The notes under the pieces: model-generated
The model's database searches: none
Seen by the model: only the letters and a program-made list of their open reading frames with translations
Told to the model about the DNA's origin: nothing
Shown: in pieces, positions 3,210 to 34,751 of the stretch
How the letters are laid out: the number at the start of each line of letters is the position of its first letter
How positions within the stretch are numbered: the first letter of the stretch is position 1
From: a virus
Taxonomy: Duplodnaviria > Heunggongvirae > Uroviricota > Caudoviricetes
Length of the DNA stretch: 40,380 nucleotides
Reading direction: 5' to 3' (one strand)
Virus record (IMG/VR): IMGVR_UViG_2744054872_000003
Span: 1-40,380 of that record
Program-made: the position numbers and the translations under genes

Positions 3210-3289
3210 TTACTGTGCATGAATACAACTTTAGTTAGTGCATCCATCATACACAACAAACCATATATGTTTCAAAACCACCACCAAAA

Positions 3290-3661: not shown

Positions 3662-3685
3662 ACGCCCTTCCATGGGCGTTTTTTA
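3662..3685. terminator. Hairpin terminator at the 3' end of the tailspike gene
   Basis: ACGCCC-TTCCAT-GGGCGT stem with a T6 run on the plus strand and an AU-rich tract on the minus strand. Confidence 0.4.
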
Positions 3686-5941
3686 GTTCAATGCAGTCCA
3701 ATCATTACTAGTGAGACCATGAGACTTCCACCATTTACTTGTCCCTGGAAGCCATACCTCTTGACCAATAAATCGAGGTGTCACGTTACCAACAGGAGTG
3801 CTCATTCCGGCACTTGTAACAACATATCCATATTTTGCTGGGCCTGTTCCATTATTAAGGATTGTATCCTTTGTTATGCCTGTTGCCCCATTGTACCATT
3901 CCAAATCACTACCGCTAGCACCGCTAATAAATTCAGGCATAAAGTGTGAAAATGAATTATTGGCATCCACTCTTGCACCATGGTAAGCCTTATAACCGCT
4001 GGCTTGAGTATTGCTCCACCTCCCTCCTTTTACACTACCAGCAGATGAAGAGAAAAATCTTGCCGCATATCTTGCAAAACCGGCTATATTTATATCATTC
4101 AATTCATAATCAGAAAGAGACGCAATTGACATACCATCATTATTAGGAATACCTGATGCTATTTGTGGGTTTGATGCATATCCTGTTAATGTTGCTCCGT
4201 TAATATATATCCCCGTGCTTGGCCCAGTCTCTGATGTGTATATTCCAACTCCAGAACAGTTAAAAACCTGAAGATCTGTTATTCTAACATTTCTGGCACA
4301 ATTAAAGCTCAAGCCACGCTCAGCTGGTGAATAGGTATCGCGCATAGGATATCCGACATCACGCAAGCGAACTCCGTTAATGCTAATGTTGCTAGGATTC
4401 ATACCTTGTGTTACTGACTCAAAACCTTCAAATGTAATGCCATTACCAACATTGACTCCCACTACATTACTGACATGAATATCTGAGACATACCTTTTAA
4501 ATCCGATAACTCCATGGGCACAATTACGACCAACAACGTTGGTGATAATGCAATTACGTGTACCTCCTGGCACCGCTGCAGAACAATAAATTCCCAAATC
4601 CCGACAATTATCTACGAGAAGGCCGTCAATGACGGAATCTATAGCGCTTGCATACATCAGGCATGAATCAGGAGCATTAACAAGTTCAACATTCTTTAGT
4701 GTGCAACGTGCTCCACCAAAGGTAAGGATATCAGCTACAGCATAAAGCTTGTTGTTTTCTTGATTACCATCAATGCGTAAATCACGTATATGAACATCAT
4801 TAGCCCCCATGTTGTGAACAAGGTAGTAGGCCTGTGTTTTATCAACACAAATATCATCCGCAAATTTAAGCCATCCCCCAGCACCGATAAGTATTGTTTT
4901 CTCCTTGATCTGTAATCCAGTAAATATCCATGGATCTCCATCTTTATTCTTTGGAGTAATCTTTATTGCACAATAACCAGGAACAGAACCAGAATAATCA
5001 AGTGCTGCCTGTAGCGTCTGCTGATCTGTCATGCTACCAAACATAAAAGAACGCACATCAATACAGTCATCAACCTGTAATTCCAATTGTAGGCCATCAA
5101 AACGGTCAACAATAACAATACCATCTGCAGTAATACCCGTATTTGGAGTTACTGAGTACTTATTATAACTACCGGCAGAGTTTTTAACCGCCACCAGGCG
5201 ACCTTCAACGGTAGTGTTTGTTGTCAGCTCAGCCTGAGTGTCGAGCTCCATCGCAATGCCACCAATAAGTGAAGCTCCGGTAGGCTTTGCGAGTTCAATC
5301 AGCACATCTGAAGCAGAACCTGAAGGAGGTAAAACAACAATAGGGTTACCGCCGTTGTCGAAAGCTGGAATTTTATTAGCACGGGTAGCGGCATCAGGAA
5401 GTTGCGGTATCTGCTCCTGAACGCGCAACGTATTTCCTAGATTAGTACTGAGCAGTGTATCAACATAATTTTTAGTAGCAGCATCTTGAGGCTTTGAAGG
5501 ATCGCGTAAATTACGGATGTAATTGTTTAGCGCATCATAATAGTTAGCCACGAATGATGGTTTACGCAGCGCCAGGCTAAACCAACTTCTAACCTGCTGA
5601 ATCAACATCGTTAACTTATCAAACGCATCCTCATGCACCTCAGCAAAAAACTTACCCTGATTGCGCAGATCAGTTTCCTGTGTAACCGGTAGCTCTCGTG
5701 ATATAGAAATCTGATAATCGTTAGCCAACGCCTTCGACAGAATTACATTGCCTCCGTTATACCCTCCCGCACCAGTGACTGTGTAATCAGTATCAAGAAC
5801 CAGCACAGTGATATTCTCGTCAAGGTCAATCACCTGCACAACCAGATCAGATTTCTGGAATATCCTGAAGGTATAAGGGAATGTCGTTGTAACACCGTTA
5901 CCGGTGTATTCGTTGTGGTCAACTTCGGTTGAGACCGTCAT
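3683..5941 (-). CDS. Tailspike protein with T7 gp17-like N-terminal attachment domain and beta-helix-type central domain
   Basis: N-terminus YTGNGVTTTFPYTFRIFQKSDLVVQV resembles the conserved podovirus tail-fibre/tailspike N-terminal domain; central region has Asn/Gly/Val-rich repeats typical of a parallel beta-helix depolymerase. Confidence 0.75.
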   Translation of the reverse strand: MTVSTEVDHNEYTGNGVTTTFPYTFRIFQKSDLVVQVIDLDENITVLVLDTDYTVTGAGGYNGGNVILSKALANDYQISISRELPVTQETDLRNQGKFFAEVHEDAFDKLTMLIQQVRSWFSLALRKPSFVANYYDALNNYIRNLRDPSKPQDAATKNYVDTLLSTNLGNTLRVQEQIPQLPDAATRANKIPAFDNGGNPIVVLPPSGSASDVLIELAKPTGASLIGGIAMELDTQAELTTNTTVEGRLVAVKNSAGSYNKYSVTPNTGITADGIVIVDRFDGLQLELQVDDCIDVRSFMFGSMTDQQTLQAALDYSGSVPGYCAIKITPKNKDGDPWIFTGLQIKEKTILIGAGGWLKFADDICVDKTQAYYLVHNMGANDVHIRDLRIDGNQENNKLYAVADILTFGGARCTLKNVELVNAPDSCLMYASAIDSVIDGLLVDNCRDLGIYCSAAVPGGTRNCIITNVVGRNCAHGVIGFKRYVSDIHVSNVVGVNVGNGITFEGFESVTQGMNPSNISINGVRLRDVGYPMRDTYSPAERGLSFNCARNVRITDLQVFNCSGVGIYTSETGPSTGIYINGATLTGYASNPQIASGIPNNDGMSIASLSDYELNDINIAGFARYAARFFSSSAGSVKGGRWSNTQASGYKAYHGARVDANNSFSHFMPEFISGASGSDLEWYNGATGITKDTILNNGTGPAKYGYVVTSAGMSTPVGNVTPRFIGQEVWLPGTSKWWKSHGLTSNDWTALN

Positions 5942-6045
5942 GTTAAATCTCCAGATAGTCGCAGCACCCGTTGCGCCGCATATCTGGTTATTCTATTACC
6001 TGAAAAACCACATATGGATAGAAAGACTGTGAATATGAATAGATA

Positions 6046-6060
6046 TTACCTTTCGGGTAA
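6046..6060. promoter_or_regulatory. Operator-like inverted repeat TTACC-TTTCG-GGTAA
   Basis: Perfect motif copy upstream of the 6137 gene. Confidence 0.5.
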
Positions 6061-6099
6061 TTTGCAAAACGTGCTGGATAGCAAACAAATTATTTGATA

Positions 6100-6115
6100 C
6101 TGTATAAATATACAG
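6100..6115. promoter_or_regulatory. LexA (SOS) box CTGTATAAATATACAG
   Basis: Matches CTGT-N8-ACAG with an AT-rich centre, one mismatch from the E. coli consensus CTGTATATATATACAG; 21 bp upstream of the 6137 start. Confidence 0.65.
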
Positions 6116-6136
6116 TTATTGCATGGAGAAGATAAG

Positions 6137-6394
6137 ATGCAGCAGTATCACTATCCACTGGAAGACGGATTTACCGAAAGGATTCACACGCCGGGAGGCG
6201 TCAGGTCACTGGTGGAGGGATCGCATTTGATGAAATTACTCCGGGATCTCGATAAGGATGGATTTAATGTCGATGGCCCACTTGCCGAACTGACTGCACT
6301 GATTAACTACGTCACCAGCTCACAGATGTCTATGCGGGATCTGCAAACACATCTCGACTATTGTGCCGAACAATTACGAAAACAAACCAGATAA
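6137..6394 (+). CDS. Small protein homologous to the C-terminal domain of the adjacent antirepressor
   Basis: Aligns over about 85 aa with residues about 145-228 of the 6708..7394 product (shared pattern PL-G-IH-P-GV-L-E-S-LM-LL-DG-V-G-AELT-Y-RD-QTH-Y); GGAGAAG RBS. Confidence 0.55.
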   Translation: MQQYHYPLEDGFTERIHTPGGVRSLVEGSHLMKLLRDLDKDGFNVDGPLAELTALINYVTSSQMSMRDLQTHLDYCAEQLRKQTR

Positions 6395-6425
6395 GGTTTG
6401 CAATTGCCAAGTGGAGTGCTTATAT

Positions 6426-6440
6426 TTACCTTTGCGGTAA
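6426..6440. promoter_or_regulatory. Operator-like inverted repeat TTACC-TTTGC-GGTAA upstream of the antirepressor leader
   Basis: Perfect motif copy. Confidence 0.5.
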
Positions 6441-6707
6441 ATTTACATCGCACTCCTCTTGTGCCATAGTAATCGGGCACTGGCAAAATCCAGTGCCGGG
6501 ATTGGCGTCCCGAGTTACTACAGAGGCACATATGCCGCATAAGCGGTTTTTTTTATGTGTAAAGCGCACCTATTCTATGGTGGGCTGTGTGGGGGCACCG
6601 AAAGGTGCGCCGGGTCCTTTGTAGCCGGTTACGCCAACCCTGCACAGTTCACCACCAACCGATTGGCGTCGGTAGTGGTGATTAACCTAACTACAAAGGT
6701 GATCACT

Positions 6708-7394
6708 ATGACTGCTAACGTAACCCCATCTGTTTTTCATTTTGAATCAGAAGCAACCATTCGAGCCATTGTTATTGATGGAAATCCTTGGTTTGTTGCC
6801 AAAGACGTTATTAAAGCTCTTCAACTGACAAACCCCACTATGTCAATAAAATCTCTTGATGATGATGAAAGGGCTAAATTTAACTTAGGCCGTCAAGGCG
6901 AAACCAATATTATCAACGAGTCAGGCCTCTACACACTGATCCTCCGCTGCCGCGATGCAGTAACACCAGGCACTATCCCCTACCGCTTTCGCAAATGGGT
7001 TACAGGTGAGGTACTTCCTCAGATCCGCCGCACCGGAAGTTACATTAAAAACTCGCTCCCGCAGGAAGAACGCATAAAGATGGTTGCCGACCAGGTAGCC
7101 AACGCCACGGCGTCAGCAGTGATGCAGGCAATGAAGATAGAGAACAAAACCTACAGTGCCCCACTGAAGCCCGGCTACCGTAGCCTGATTCATTCGCCGT
7201 CTGGTGTTCTCGGCCTGACGGAGAACTCACTGCTGATGAATCTGCTGAACAAGTTACAGGAAGACGGGCACGATGTATCGGGCGCGGCAGCGGAGCTGAC
7301 CACCATGTTCTGCTACATCGTCGGTGTGAGCAAATGCCTGCGTGATATCCAGACGCACGCGGAGTACATCAACGACAAAGCAGGGTTCTTCTGA
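6708..7394 (+). CDS. Antirepressor, Bro-N domain protein
   Basis: N-terminus FHFESEATIRAIVIDGNPWFVAKDV...NESGLYTLILR fits the Bro-N pattern; AAGGTGA RBS before ATG at 6708; the ORF-track extension to 6555 looks non-coding. Confidence 0.7.
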   Translation: MTANVTPSVFHFESEATIRAIVIDGNPWFVAKDVIKALQLTNPTMSIKSLDDDERAKFNLGRQGETNIINESGLYTLILRCRDAVTPGTIPYRFRKWVTGEVLPQIRRTGSYIKNSLPQEERIKMVADQVANATASAVMQAMKIENKTYSAPLKPGYRSLIHSPSGVLGLTENSLLMNLLNKLQEDGHDVSGAAAELTTMFCYIVGVSKCLRDIQTHAEYINDKAGFF

Positions 7395-7466
7395 CAAGCG
7401 GTGGCACAGGGATGTGCCTTTAAATAATTCTGTACAGATTGCAGACTGTGGGTGAATAGCGTACTA

Positions 7467-7481
7467 TTACCTTAAAGGTAA
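7467..7481. promoter_or_regulatory. Operator-like inverted repeat TTACC-TTAAA-GGTAA overlapping the RBS of the 7494 gene
   Basis: Perfect motif copy directly abutting the AAGGAGG Shine-Dalgarno. Confidence 0.5.
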
Positions 7482-7493
7482 AGGAGGCGCGAT

Positions 7494-7661
7494 ATGACAG
7501 CGTTGAAAAATCGTACTCAGCACAATGAACAAGCCAAGCAATGCTGGGATGTCATTGGAAAAGTTATGCTTGGCCGCGCAAGCAAAGAGCGCGACAAGGA
7601 TATGGTTTACCAGACAGGAACATCTTTCAGCGACTTCAAGGCGGCATTTCGCTCCAAATAG
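7494..7661 (+). CDS. Small hypothetical protein (55 aa)
   Basis: Strong AAGGAGG RBS; protein-like composition; not in the ORF track because it is under 60 aa. Confidence 0.4.
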   Translation: MTALKNRTQHNEQAKQCWDVIGKVMLGRASKERDKDMVYQTGTSFSDFKAAFRSK

Positions 7662-7681
7662 AAGCACATCAGGAGTTTTCC

Positions 7682-8122
7682 TTGAAGTTTAACATTAGAA
7701 TATCTAATAGTTTTCTACATGGGGAAAGCAACACCCCTTTCGCTGTAGACGGACCTTTCCTTACTGATGATGAAATAAAAATCATACAAAGTTTTTTAGA
7801 GGATGTTGCCAATGGAAGGGCGCTTGTTGGAAAAAACAAGCCCTCGTGGGTTGATGATAACCATGATAAAATTCCCGGCTCAGACAATTATGAGCAAGAG
7901 AATTATTGGCATTATCATTGTGGGCCAACATGGTATCCAAACACATTTAAGAATTATACCATTAACTTAAATTTCAACCCTGGCGGAAGGCATTCTAATG
8001 AATGCATTCATTATGCAAAAAATGATAATGAAATTGTCATTGTTGGATTTTCAAGAGAACACATACCTTTCCTTTCATCAGATGGAAACAACAATCCGCT
8101 TTTTAATGATGAAGAAGAATAG
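7682..8122 (+). CDS. AT-rich accessory gene of unknown function (147 aa), probable TTG start
   Basis: ORF with no in-frame ATG after 7541; AGGAG RBS 6 nt before TTG at 7682; markedly AT-rich; acidic C-terminus; ends at a strong terminator. Confidence 0.45.
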   Translation: MKFNIRISNSFLHGESNTPFAVDGPFLTDDEIKIIQSFLEDVANGRALVGKNKPSWVDDNHDKIPGSDNYEQENYWHYHCGPTWYPNTFKNYTINLNFNPGGRHSNECIHYAKNDNEIVIVGFSREHIPFLSSDGNNNPLFNDEEE

Positions 8123-8143
8123 CCCGCGCTGCGGGCTTTTTTT
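8121..8143 (+). terminator. Rho-independent terminator
   Basis: AGCCCGC-GCT-GCGGGCT hairpin followed by T6. Confidence 0.75.
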
Positions 8144-8215
8144 GTGGACGAAACAAAAGTCAGTGCTACACTCATTGACGCCACATTGAGGTGGCTTATA
8201 GATGGAAATTTCACA

Positions 8216-8377
8216 ATGAAAAAAGCATTTGCTGCACTGTTCGTTTTGTTGTCTCTGGTAGCTTCAACTCAGGCCTTTGCCGGTCGTTGTCAGCACGACA
8301 GCGACACTGCTGCTGACGGCTCACGCTGCGGTGGGCGTTCTGCGGATTCCCGCCCAGGCGGCGGTGGCATTCGTTAA
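8216..8377 (+). CDS. Small secreted Gly/Cys-containing peptide (53 aa precursor)
   Basis: Signal peptide MKKAFAALFVLLSLVASTQAFA then a 31-aa Gly/Ser/Asp-rich tail with two Cys; weak RBS. Confidence 0.3.
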   Translation: MKKAFAALFVLLSLVASTQAFAGRCQHDSDTAADGSRCGGRSADSRPGGGGIR

Positions 8378-8400: not shown

Positions 8401-8412
8401 GTGACATGTCAC
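8401..8412. repeat. 12-bp palindrome GTGACATGTCAC, copy 1
   Basis: Perfect palindrome overlapping the stop codon of the 8409..8705 gene and abutting a terminator hairpin; identical copies at 25932 and 28197. Confidence 0.6.
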
Positions 8413-8705
8413 GTCCCTTTTCTGAATGATAGCCATTCGAAAAATGATGACATTCCACCGCAGACAATAGCAAAGATGATCCCACCAAAGAAGAGAAGGC
8501 CAGCCTGCCACCACTCCCACCGCCATACATCCACAGCACCAACCATACCAACAATCGCTCCAACAAATGGAATATAGCTCACGATGAAAGCAATGGGGGC
8601 TGCAATTATCCAGTGCAATCCCCACCATGATTCAAGCCCAGCCATAATTGCTGCCAACTGAAAAAGACCAACGACGATATAAACAATGAATCCTATAGCT
8701 TGCAT
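8409..8705 (-). CDS. Small multi-pass membrane protein
   Basis: 98 aa, three or four hydrophobic helices, Trp-rich loops; downstream of the virion gene block. Confidence 0.45.
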   Translation of the reverse strand: MQAIGFIVYIVVGLFQLAAIMAGLESWWGLHWIIAAPIAFIVSYIPFVGAIVGMVGAVDVWRWEWWQAGLLFFGGIIFAIVCGGMSSFFEWLSFRKGT

Positions 8706-20958: not shown

Positions 20959-20978
20959 TGGGTCTGTTACGACCCACA
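20959..20978 (-). terminator. Hairpin immediately after the major capsid gene
   Basis: GTGGGTC-GTAACA-GACCCAC in the 51-bp gap after the capsid stop; no clear U-tract. Confidence 0.35.
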
Positions 20979-31703: not shown

Positions 31704-31718
31704 TTACCTCTTAGGTAA
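31704..31718. promoter_or_regulatory. Operator-like inverted repeat TTACC-TCTTA-GGTAA overlapping the DUF1064 RBS
   Basis: Perfect motif copy. Confidence 0.5.
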
Positions 31719-34166: not shown

Positions 34167-34751
34167 ATGAAAAGTATCCAGGACGTCCGCAGGCAAAATC
34201 TCAACGACTTGATCGACCGTGAATTCAATGGTGTTCAGACGCGGATGGCAGAAAAACTTGGAACTCAGGCAAATCTGGTAAACCGCTGGGCTCTTGGCAA
34301 GAAGGTTATCGGCGACCAGGTTGCGCGAAAAATTGAAGCTGCCGCCAATAAACCCCGTAACTGGCTTGATATCGATCGCTCGCTTTCTCAGGAAGGTTTT
34401 CAGCCTGTCGGCCCAAGCGACATTGGTCAGCTGGCGGCTCACAACCTGGAACGCTGGATGAGCGAAAGCCGCGACCTTTCAACACAGGGAAAACTTCACC
34501 GCGCATCCGGCGTCGCCCAGGTGACAATCAGCCGCCTGTTAAACAATGAGGTCAGCGTTTCCATTTCCACCCTGGAGAATGTTGCATCTGCATTCGGGCG
34601 TCACGGATATGAACTACTGATTCATCCGCATGACCCTGCAACTATCAACTATGACCGCTCGCGCTACGCATTGTTACCTGAAACAGAGAAGGCAAAGATC
34701 GAAAGTTACATTGAATTTGTCATCAACCAGAACGAAAAAAGCAAACAATAA
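34167..34751 (+). CDS. Prophage repressor (cI-like) with HTH domains and no S24 peptidase domain
   Basis: N-terminal XRE-type HTH (MAEKLGTQANLVNRWALGKKVIGDQVARKIE) and a second HTH-like segment; no Ala-Gly/Ser/Lys autocleavage module; sits upstream of the early-left promoter in cI-like orientation. Confidence 0.65.
   Translation: MKSIQDVRRQNLNDLIDREFNGVQTRMAEKLGTQANLVNRWALGKKVIGDQVARKIEAAANKPRNWLDIDRSLSQEGFQPVGPSDIGQLAAHNLERWMSESRDLSTQGKLHRASGVAQVTISRLLNNEVSVSISTLENVASAFGRHGYELLIHPHDPATINYDRSRYALLPETEKAKIESYIEFVINQNEKSKQ

Follow-up and report, generated by a model that had tools for sequence, protein, structure and literature searches.

The window analysed here is a 40,380-nucleotide (nt) stretch of viral DNA (Caudoviricetes; IMG/VR record IMGVR_UViG_2744054872_000003, positions 1 to 40,380), which is classed as an epsilon15/phiV10-like (Uetakevirus) prophage of Escherichia coli. 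Its region 6046-7394 contains a LexA box, a small gene starting at 6137 (ant, encoding Ant1) and a gene for a Bro-N protein starting at 6708 (ant2, encoding Ant2). This locus is very probably the SOS-sensing arm of a lysis-lysogeny switch of the type known from Salmonella phage SPC32H, with Ant2 belonging to a separate unit held by the phage repressor (Rep) and by a C4-type antisense RNA. LexA binding and SOS responsiveness of the ant promoter, as well as binding of Rep by Ant1, are predicted for the window phage from its sequence. An initial annotation of the locus had proposed, by analogy with Gifsy-type prophages, SOS induction through LexA-controlled antirepression of a non-cleavable repressor. 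That proposal is supported, and the case for it is stronger than the Gifsy analogy because the 6137 product and the repressor can be recognised as orthologues of Ant and Rep of SPC32H.

The LexA box TACTGTATAAATATACAGTT occupies positions 6098-6117 (no strand assigned), and the ATG of the 6137 gene lies 21 nt 3' of its core CTGTATAAATATACAG (CTGT-N8-ACAG, 6100-6115). The 20-mer differs from the E. coli LexA consensus TACTGTATATATATACAGTA at two positions and is the only site in the window that matches the consensus with up to three mismatches; no such match was found in 100 dinucleotide shuffles. A symmetrised weight matrix was derived from an informal compilation of 24 E. coli LexA sites. The box scored 27.6 bits, unique in the window and above all 24 training sites (13.0-26.7 bits), and the best of 500 shuffles reached 21.0 bits. 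The initial annotation had described a near-consensus box 21 base pairs (bp) before the 6137 gene and about 600 bp before the Bro-N gene, and had suggested matrix scoring as a check; the position, the score and the measured distance of 593 nt to the Bro-N ATG (6708) all bear it out.

We give hardly any credence to the idea that this palindrome is no LexA site but an AT-rich inverted repeat that arose by chance, or part of a promoter. The intergenic region around it is indeed rich in A and T, and -10-like sequences overlap it, but it outscores every site used to build the matrix, had no counterpart in the 100 shuffles matched against the consensus, and was not approached to within 6 bits by any of the 500 scored ones. 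Moreover, its CTGT and ACAG arms are kept across genera while the centre of the box and its flanks differ, and the mutation that distinguishes phage SPC32N (see below) falls in the ACAG arm. Other candidate sites in the window were dismissed as chance occurrences, being no better than shuffles: the next best, a 12.3-bit site at 3211 in front of a holin-like gene, and two CTGT-N8-ACAG sequences at 20964 and 25506, which have GC-rich centres and score below 10 bits.

The box is conserved among relatives of the window phage. Of the 96 loci fetched, 84 contain a single copy of the exact pattern CTGTAT-N4-ATACAG, approximately 21-22 nt before the ant ATG where this was checked. The 12 loci without it comprise nine with variant boxes (13-25 bits), one that is truncated, one with an insertion inside the box, and SPC32N. 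A set of 13 diverse loci was drawn from E. coli, Salmonella, Citrobacter, Erwinia, Superficieibacter, Pseudocitrobacter, Scandinavium, Enterobacter and Klebsiella. All 13 share a Rep operator, a TGGAWA hexamer, a 17-nt spacer and a TACTGT or TATATG hexamer overlapping the left arm of the box; the Shine-Dalgarno sequence is also kept, the centre and flanks of the box are variable, and Ant identity is as low as 60%. A scan of genome contigs with exact peptide patterns yielded six loci.

SPC32H and SPC32N differ by two bases. One of these differences changes ACAG to AAAG in the box and lowers its score from 24.7 to 18.0 bits; the homologous base in the window, C6113, is intact. In agreement with this, a single mutation in the LexA box reportedly makes Ant production constitutive in SPC32N, which is always lytic. 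The region upstream of SPC32H ant contains the operator ATTACCTTACAGGTAAT, the hexamer TTGCAT and then, 38 nt further, CTGTATGTTTATACAG, which reproduces the layout and spacing seen in the window. A different kind of change was observed in one related record (L070; IMGVR_UViG_2563366870_000004, positions 2900-2990), in which foreign sequence replaces the left half of the LexA box together with the ant promoter. This looks like the insertion of a mobile element ending inside the box; ant would thereby be separated from its promoter, and the prophage might be locked.

The ant gene (6137-6394, plus strand) is preceded by the Shine-Dalgarno sequence GGAGAAG (6125-6131) and encodes an antirepressor of 85 amino acids (PHROG 450). 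Ant1 is 86.7% identical over 83 residues to the protein annotated as 'ant: anti-repressor protein' in SPC32H and SPC32N, and matches chain E of PDB entry 5D50, 'Anti-repressor protein', with an E value of 1.4e-46. The Ant protein of SPC32H has been crystallised in complex with its repressor (5D50), and two structures of the SPC32H switch exist, 5D50 and 5D4Z. Ant1 was assigned to no Pfam family; its sole Pfam hit, to DUF724, was below threshold and was dismissed. The small Ant is labelled 'hypothetical protein' in RefSeq and PHROG 450 is listed as 'unknown function', despite the solved structure of the homologue in 5D50.

The presumed target of Ant1, and of Ant2, is Rep (34167-34751, plus strand), a repressor of 194 amino acids with two helix-turn-helix (HTH) regions, whose gene is flanked by the operator pairs 34049/34097 and 34809/34871. 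Along its full length, Rep shares 43% identity with SPC32H Rep; it matches chain A of 5D50, 'Repressor' (E value 3.5e-42), and is 99.5% identical to the repressors of phages ZX5 and phiV10. It thus conforms to the SPC32H type of repressor, which joins an N-terminal DNA-binding domain to a C-terminal oligomerisation domain that contains an HTH. On these comparisons, the 6137 product is assigned as the orthologue of SPC32H Ant and the product of 34167-34751 as that of SPC32H Rep. As the initial annotation had stated, the repressor has no autocleavage domain of the LexA/cI type: the Pfam search returned HTH families only and no Peptidase_S24 domain, so Rep does not class with repressors that cleave themselves in the manner of lambda cI or LexA. 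Among 50,697 phage records, the 35-37 that contain Rep, those that contain Ant1 and those that contain an Ant-like domain also forming the C-terminal part of Ant2 are essentially the same ones, which fits an Ant-like domain dedicated to this repressor family.

Published work on related phages also favours this reading. In a review's account of the SPC32H system, Ant is made after self-cleavage of LexA and inhibits the repressor by protein-protein interaction (PMC7380047, citing Kim & Ryu 2013). According to the summary of Kim et al. 2016 (PNAS 113:E2480) given in PMC9638917, Rep is a tetramer on DNA, and this tetramer comes apart when the tetrameric Ant binds two Rep dimers. In the case of ZX5, the lysogen was induced by mitomycin C, and Rep prevented lytic growth, its overexpression abolishing free phage (PMC9782041). 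When the E. coli group is compared with the Salmonella group (SPC32H and epsilon15), Ant is 83-87% identical but Rep only approximately 43%. The much stronger conservation of Ant hints at conserved contact surfaces and at possible cross-induction of heteroimmune relatives.

The genetic context also corresponds to that of SPC32H. The tailspike gene (3683-5941, minus strand) is followed by three rightward units (6137-6394, 6708-7394 and 7494-8122) and then by the virion operon on the minus strand; ant is thus divergent from the tailspike gene and located at the end of the virion operon, the synteny that characterises a switch of the SPC32H type. The segment 5900-7700 is 93-97% identical to E. 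coli podophages of the epsilon15 group (Uetakevirus), including phiV10, TL-2011b, phiv142-3, ZX5 and HEMP4, and 78% identical to Enterobacter phage Tyrion. At least 80% of the length of the segment 6040-6720 was found in 281 of 5426 complete E. coli genomes.

Rep is expected to act through the motif TTACC-N5-GGTAA, of which the window contains 14 sites with at most one mismatch, compared to 0.64 expected. Three of these, at 6046, 6426 and 7467, stand in front of the three rightward transcription units. Further operators are found before the lysis, late, replication and early units (3290, 24977, 28086/28104, 31704/31766, 33712, 34049/34097 and 34809/34871). The paired operators are spaced by 62, 62, 48 and 18 bp, and the 62-bp pairs flank the -35 and -10 hexamers of early promoters. 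Operators are not confined to the immunity region, and judging from this distribution, direct repression by Rep seems to extend to most promoters of the genome.

The operator nearest to ant, ATTACCTTTCGGGTAAT (6045-6061, no strand assigned), lies between the divergent tailspike and ant genes, 5' of the likely -35 hexamer of ant. Its position is conserved in the 13 diverse loci, and the same 17-mer is annotated as 'protein_bind repressor' in the RefSeq record of epsilon15. The probable ant promoter (6075-6103, plus strand), identified by eye from conservation, consists of TGGATA (6075-6080), a 17-nt spacer and TACTGT (6098-6103), these exact hexamers being putative; an alternative -35 hexamer, TTGCAA (6062-6067), is less conserved. 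Since the putative -10 hexamer overlaps the left arm of the box, LexA would cover both the -10 sequence and the transcription start. At the promoters that are clearly controlled by Rep, it is the operator that lies over the -10 hexamer and start, in many cases accompanied by another operator 62 bp further upstream (31704/31766 and 34809/34871; also 6425, 7466 and 3290). The ant promoter therefore looks like a Rep-controlled promoter in which the proximal operator has been swapped for a LexA box.

Several points weigh against a LexA-triggered switch of the SPC32H type. Rep shares just 43% identity with SPC32H Rep, so that the binding of Rep by Ant1 is extrapolated from the SPC32H complex. A scan with the sigma-70 consensus upstream of ant revealed no promoter matching at 9 or more of 12 positions, and the proposed hexamers agree with the consensus at four (TGGATA) and three (TACTGT) of six positions. 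The LexA matrix depends on an informal compilation of sites. Finally, the conserved operator could mean that Rep also represses ant, which would complicate a trigger operated by LexA alone.

The last point concerns a further claim of the initial annotation, that the locus is under dual control by LexA and the phage repressor. The operator itself is real and conserved, but it lies 5' of the likely -35 hexamer and the SPC32N genotype argues that Rep is insufficient at this promoter: Rep alone apparently does not silence ant, because a single change in the SPC32N box accompanies the loss of lysogeny. Dual control of ant by Rep is plausible but only partly supported; Rep may modulate ant, giving a double-negative loop, or the operator may instead serve the divergent tailspike promoter. 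In the extreme form of this idea, Rep would dominate the ant promoter through 6045-6061, and LexA would be a minor modulator acting through a conserved box of weak input. The presence of the operator beside the ant promoter in 13 of 13 diverse loci and the strong enrichment of the motif in the window speak in its favour. We nevertheless consider it quite improbable: the operator is upstream of the conserved -35-like hexamer and may belong to the tailspike promoter, the place over the -10 hexamer and start that the operator takes at 31704/31766, 34809/34871, 6426 and 7467 is held at ant by the LexA box, and one change in that box divides lysogenic SPC32H from non-lysogenic SPC32N.

The second rightward unit encodes Ant2 (6708-7394, plus strand), a protein of 228 amino acids composed of two domains. 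Residues 18-104 (nt 6759-7019) form the Bro-N domain named by the initial annotation and recovered here with Pfam (PF02498, E value 5e-20). Towards the C terminus, residues 147-224 (nt 7146-7379) make up an Ant-like domain that shares 41% identity with Ant1 (E value 2e-20), matches chain E of 5D50 (E value 1.5e-13) and is 98.9% identical to the C-terminal domain of ORF4 of ZX5, annotated as 'anti-repressor'. Overexpression of the Bro-N antirepressor of ZX5 lowered prophage titres from 10^9 to 10^6, with lysogeny approximately 1000-fold lower (PMC9782041).

Between ant and ant2 lies a regulatory region. The promoter region of the second unit (6398-6470, plus strand) comprises two promoter-like sites, TTGCAA-N17-TATATT (6398-6426) and TTTACA-N17-CATAGT (6442-6470), which flank the Rep operator TTTACCTTTGCGGTAAA (6425-6441, no strand assigned). 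Other loci retain this operator and the second promoter but have unrelated sequence in place of what precedes them. They are followed by an IsrK-like RNA (6477-6553, plus strand; Rfam RF01394, isrK, 74.2 bits with a gathering threshold of 50). Complementarity identifies within it two putative decoys, b1 GATTGGCGT (6500-6508) and a1 CTACAGAGG (6518-6526), and the terminator scan placed an intrinsic terminator at its end (stem 6534-6547, then a T-run). The Rfam model c4-a1b1 matched 6464-6516 with 44.3 bits, under its gathering threshold of 46.7. The next element is a C4-type antisense RNA (6573-6659, plus strand; Rfam RF01695, 79.5 bits with a gathering threshold of 45, model positions 1-87 of 87), whose computed fold gives the expected structure with the loop a' CCTTTGTAG (6616-6624) and the single-stranded segment b' ACGCCAA (6631-6637). 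The predicted targets of C4 are in the leader of the Bro-N mRNA (6661-6703, plus strand): b2 GATTGGCGT (6661-6669) and a2 CTACAAAGG (6691-6699), the latter overlapping the Shine-Dalgarno sequence of the Bro-N gene, AAGGTGAT (6696-6703).

The assignment of these elements was based on segment-wise complementarity and covariation, as whole-length RNA duplex predictions ignore intramolecular structure and were uninformative. Loop a' is complementary to a2 over nine contiguous pairs and pairs with a1 through one G-U; b' can form seven contiguous pairs with the sequence TTGGCGT, which is present in IsrK (6502-6508) and again in the leader (6663-6669). In each of 66 distinct sequences from related loci, a' can form 7-9 contiguous Watson-Crick pairs with the a2 of that sequence, and b' 7-8 with its b1 and b2, compared to a mean of approximately 4.7-4.9 contiguous pairs between different alleles. 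The pairing of a' with its own a1 amounts to 8-9 pairs, the window allele having nine including the G-U. Four a alleles and four b alleles were distinguished, the loop a' alleles including CCTTTGTAG of the window and CCACTTAG, and 8 of the 16 possible combinations were found, with matched three-way covariation of a1/a'/a2 and of b1/b'/b2.

Translation upstream of ant2 was also considered. A 279-amino-acid reading frame starting at 6555 was rejected: 6555-6707 corresponds to the C4 RNA, and relatives differ there by non-triplet indels. No conserved reading frame was found between C4 and the ATG at 6708. The only upstream open reading frame (ORF) runs from the ATG at 6577 to 6624 and so stops 84 nt short of the ant2 start codon, and the spacer contains non-triplet indels between loci.

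The same RNA module was found in 235 phage records, among them those of Stx phages, Gifsy-1, SfV and APSE-3; in the last of these it is annotated as C4 and isrK, and the a' and b' regions are marked. The C4 segment alone (6574-6682) is 85% identical in many Stx1- and Stx2-converting phages. The antisense-RNA cassette has evidently, from these matches, been exchanged between unrelated phage groups.

In 76 of 77 related loci, the distance from the end of C4 to the start of the following gene is 46-51 nt. The N-terminal part of its product is variable, with at least four Bro-N variants and one other type (MNAQLIPVFNG...), and the Ant-like C-terminal domain is nearly constant. Three of the 77 products are devoid of the Ant-like domain: an unrelated 168-amino-acid protein and two truncated copies, including that of phiV10. 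In the genome of phiV10 (L001, NC_007804.2, 3808-4487), the Bro-N/Ant2 gene has a frameshift in the part that encodes the Ant-like C-terminal domain and is annotated as two ORFs, p23 and p22. This phage, the type phage of the E. coli group, is probably without a functional Ant2. The Bro-N unit is optional more generally, being absent from SPC32H and epsilon15, and also from PAS61 and YDC107_2 despite a 99.5% identical Rep.

This arrangement bears on the idea that the LexA promoter drives ant and the Bro-N gene as one SOS-induced operon, with the Bro-N protein as the main inducer. The two genes have the same orientation, no intrinsic terminator was found from the ant stop (6394) to 6534-6547, and the IsrK terminator is leaky in Gifsy-1 (PMC4825925). 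The Bro-N protein also has an Ant-like domain, and overexpression of its ZX5 counterpart promotes lytic growth. Even so, we regard a common operon as unlikely. The LexA promoter does not simply lead into the Bro-N gene, because a terminator, an independent promoter with a Rep operator, and the IsrK/C4 lock, in which C4 would mask the Bro-N ribosome-binding site, intervene; the matrix scan detected no second LexA-like site within 6395-6707. In SPC32H and epsilon15, a terminator directly follows ant and there is no Bro-N gene, PAS61 and YDC107_2 have nearly the same Rep and lack the module, and the phiV10 copy is frameshifted. The LexA-controlled antirepressor module of the initial annotation is thus retained for the small 6137 gene, which that annotation had left unnamed, and is not primarily a matter of the Bro-N protein.

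For the favoured SPC32H-type switch with a separately held Ant2, the following course of events can be proposed. In the lysogen, host LexA bound at 6100-6115, over the -10 hexamer and start of the ant promoter, would silence Ant1. DNA damage would activate RecA, LexA would cleave itself and Ant1 would be made. Ant1 would then bind the non-cleavable Rep and free the TTACC-N5-GGTAA operators, and the release of Rep would derepress the early, late and lysis promoters, all of which have operators. Ant2 would be restrained by Rep at the level of transcription and by C4 at the level of translation, and not directly by LexA: C4 is predicted to pair with two leader elements, one of them over the ribosome-binding site, and so to lock translation. 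In this scheme, Ant2 would come on only after the removal of Rep or upon entry into a Rep-free cell, and its putative role would be reinforcement or anti-immunity.

A more speculative extension, which we put forward tentatively and consider doubtful, places the two antirepressors in series through RNA. The ant transcripts should end at the IsrK terminator, carrying a1/b1, because no terminator was found between ant and IsrK. With a1/b1 as their 3' untranslated region (UTR), a burst of these SOS-induced transcripts might titrate C4; the a and b alleles would constitute a second, RNA-based immunity specificity that assorts independently of Rep, and Ant1 might cross-induce heteroimmune relatives. 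If this were true, titration of C4 together with the clearing of Rep from 6425-6441 by Ant1 would unlock Ant2 translation, resulting in feed-forward commitment, and the 3' UTR of an mRNA would soak up an antisense RNA like a sponge, so that Ant2 translation would be tied to SOS.

The third rightward unit (7437-8137) has the promoter TTGCAG-N17-TACTAT, with a Rep operator (7466-7482) over its -10 hexamer. It contains a 55-amino-acid ORF (7494-7661, plus strand; PHROG 8607) and a 146-amino-acid ORF (7682-8122, plus strand; PHROG 5954), neither of which had a match in Pfam or PADLOC, and it ends in a bidirectional terminator (8121-8137). An AgvB match at 8082-8143 (21 bits, E value 0.55) was rejected as merely the terminator hairpin. 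This unit is found in only about 10 of 95 related loci; it can be viewed as variable cargo and should be silent in the lysogen. Between it and the virion operon are a small ORF (8144-8377, plus strand) with a signal-peptide-like start (MKKAFAALFVLLSLVASTQAFAG...) and a gene for a 98-amino-acid membrane protein (8409-8705, minus strand; PHROG 3075).

The mechanism of SOS induction by antirepression proposed by the initial annotation is very probably correct, but it has already been published for the congeneric phage SPC32H (Kim & Ryu 2013, J Virol 87:11775). The two phages share the genus, the gene order (tailspike, divergent ant, virion protein gene), an Ant protein with 87% identity and a homologous Rep with two HTH regions and no S24 domain. 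They also share the operator, the -35 hexamer, the 17-nt spacer, the -10 hexamer overlapping the LexA box in the same register, and the Shine-Dalgarno sequence at the same spacing. They differ in that Rep is 43% identical, which represents a different immunity type, and in that the host of the window phage is E. coli. In addition, the window contains an extra 1.0-kb unit (IsrK/C4 and Bro-N-Ant2) and 0.7 kb of cargo between ant and the membrane-protein gene, where SPC32H has just a terminator.

The RNA-controlled second antirepressor is a combination of known kinds of parts. In the immI region of P1/P7 (c4-icd-ant; Citron & Schuster 1990), C4 derives from the transcript that also contains its target, with a1/b1 upstream and a2/b2 downstream. 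The window resembles this system in having a C4-family RNA on the transcript of the target, a2 over the ribosome-binding site, an operator of the primary repressor at the promoter, and allelic a and b specificities like those that distinguish P1 from P7. It differs in that a2 overlaps the Shine-Dalgarno sequence of the antirepressor gene itself, whereas in P1/P7 ant is controlled through the translationally coupled upstream gene icd, of which the window has no equivalent. Moreover, the antirepressor of the window is a fusion of Bro-N and Ant-like domains, and its module lies directly 3' of a LexA-controlled antirepressor gene.

The RNA part also resembles isrK-orf45-anrP of Gifsy-1: the IsrK match is above the gathering threshold, and an alignment with the Gifsy-1 record extends over isrK as well as C4 (71%, query 20-223). 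In both systems, a short RNA that ends at a leaky terminator precedes an antirepressor gene, and RNA structure locks the translation of this gene in Gifsy-1 and is predicted to do so in the window. The short IsrK RNA of Gifsy-1 acts in trans to switch on translation of the antirepressor encoded further downstream (Hershko-Shalev et al. 2016, PMC4825925). The window differs by the absence of the coupled orf45 frame, whose stop overlaps the antirepressor start in Gifsy-1, by a promoter with a Rep operator, and by the downstream protein.

In its regulatory logic, the locus is also like GfoA/GfhA of Gifsy-1/-3 and Fels-2 (Lemire et al. 2011, PMC3121763) and Tum of phage 186: all combine a non-cleavable repressor with a small LexA-repressed antirepressor gene and possible cross-talk among prophages. 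Unlike these, the ant gene of the window is located by the tailspike gene in the virion-gene region and not in the immunity region. Ant is reportedly distinct in structure from the antirepressors of Gifsy, Fels-2 and 186. The immI region of P22 consists of mnt-arc-ant with the sar antisense RNA. Like the window, P22 has an antirepressor unit beside the tailspike gene of a temperate podophage and control by an antisense RNA, but its regulators are Mnt, Arc and sar RNA, it is not known to have a LexA box, and its c2 repressor is RecA-cleavable.

The practical value of these results lies in annotation and prediction. Recognising Ant predicts that relatives of phiV10, which is specific to O157, would be induced by SOS-triggering antibiotics via LexA and Ant, and not by cleavage of the repressor. 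Inducibility would be altered by substitution of a single base of the box or by an insertion such as that in L070. The second antirepressor, with its combinatorial C4 alleles, would provide a natural example of RNA-based specificity.

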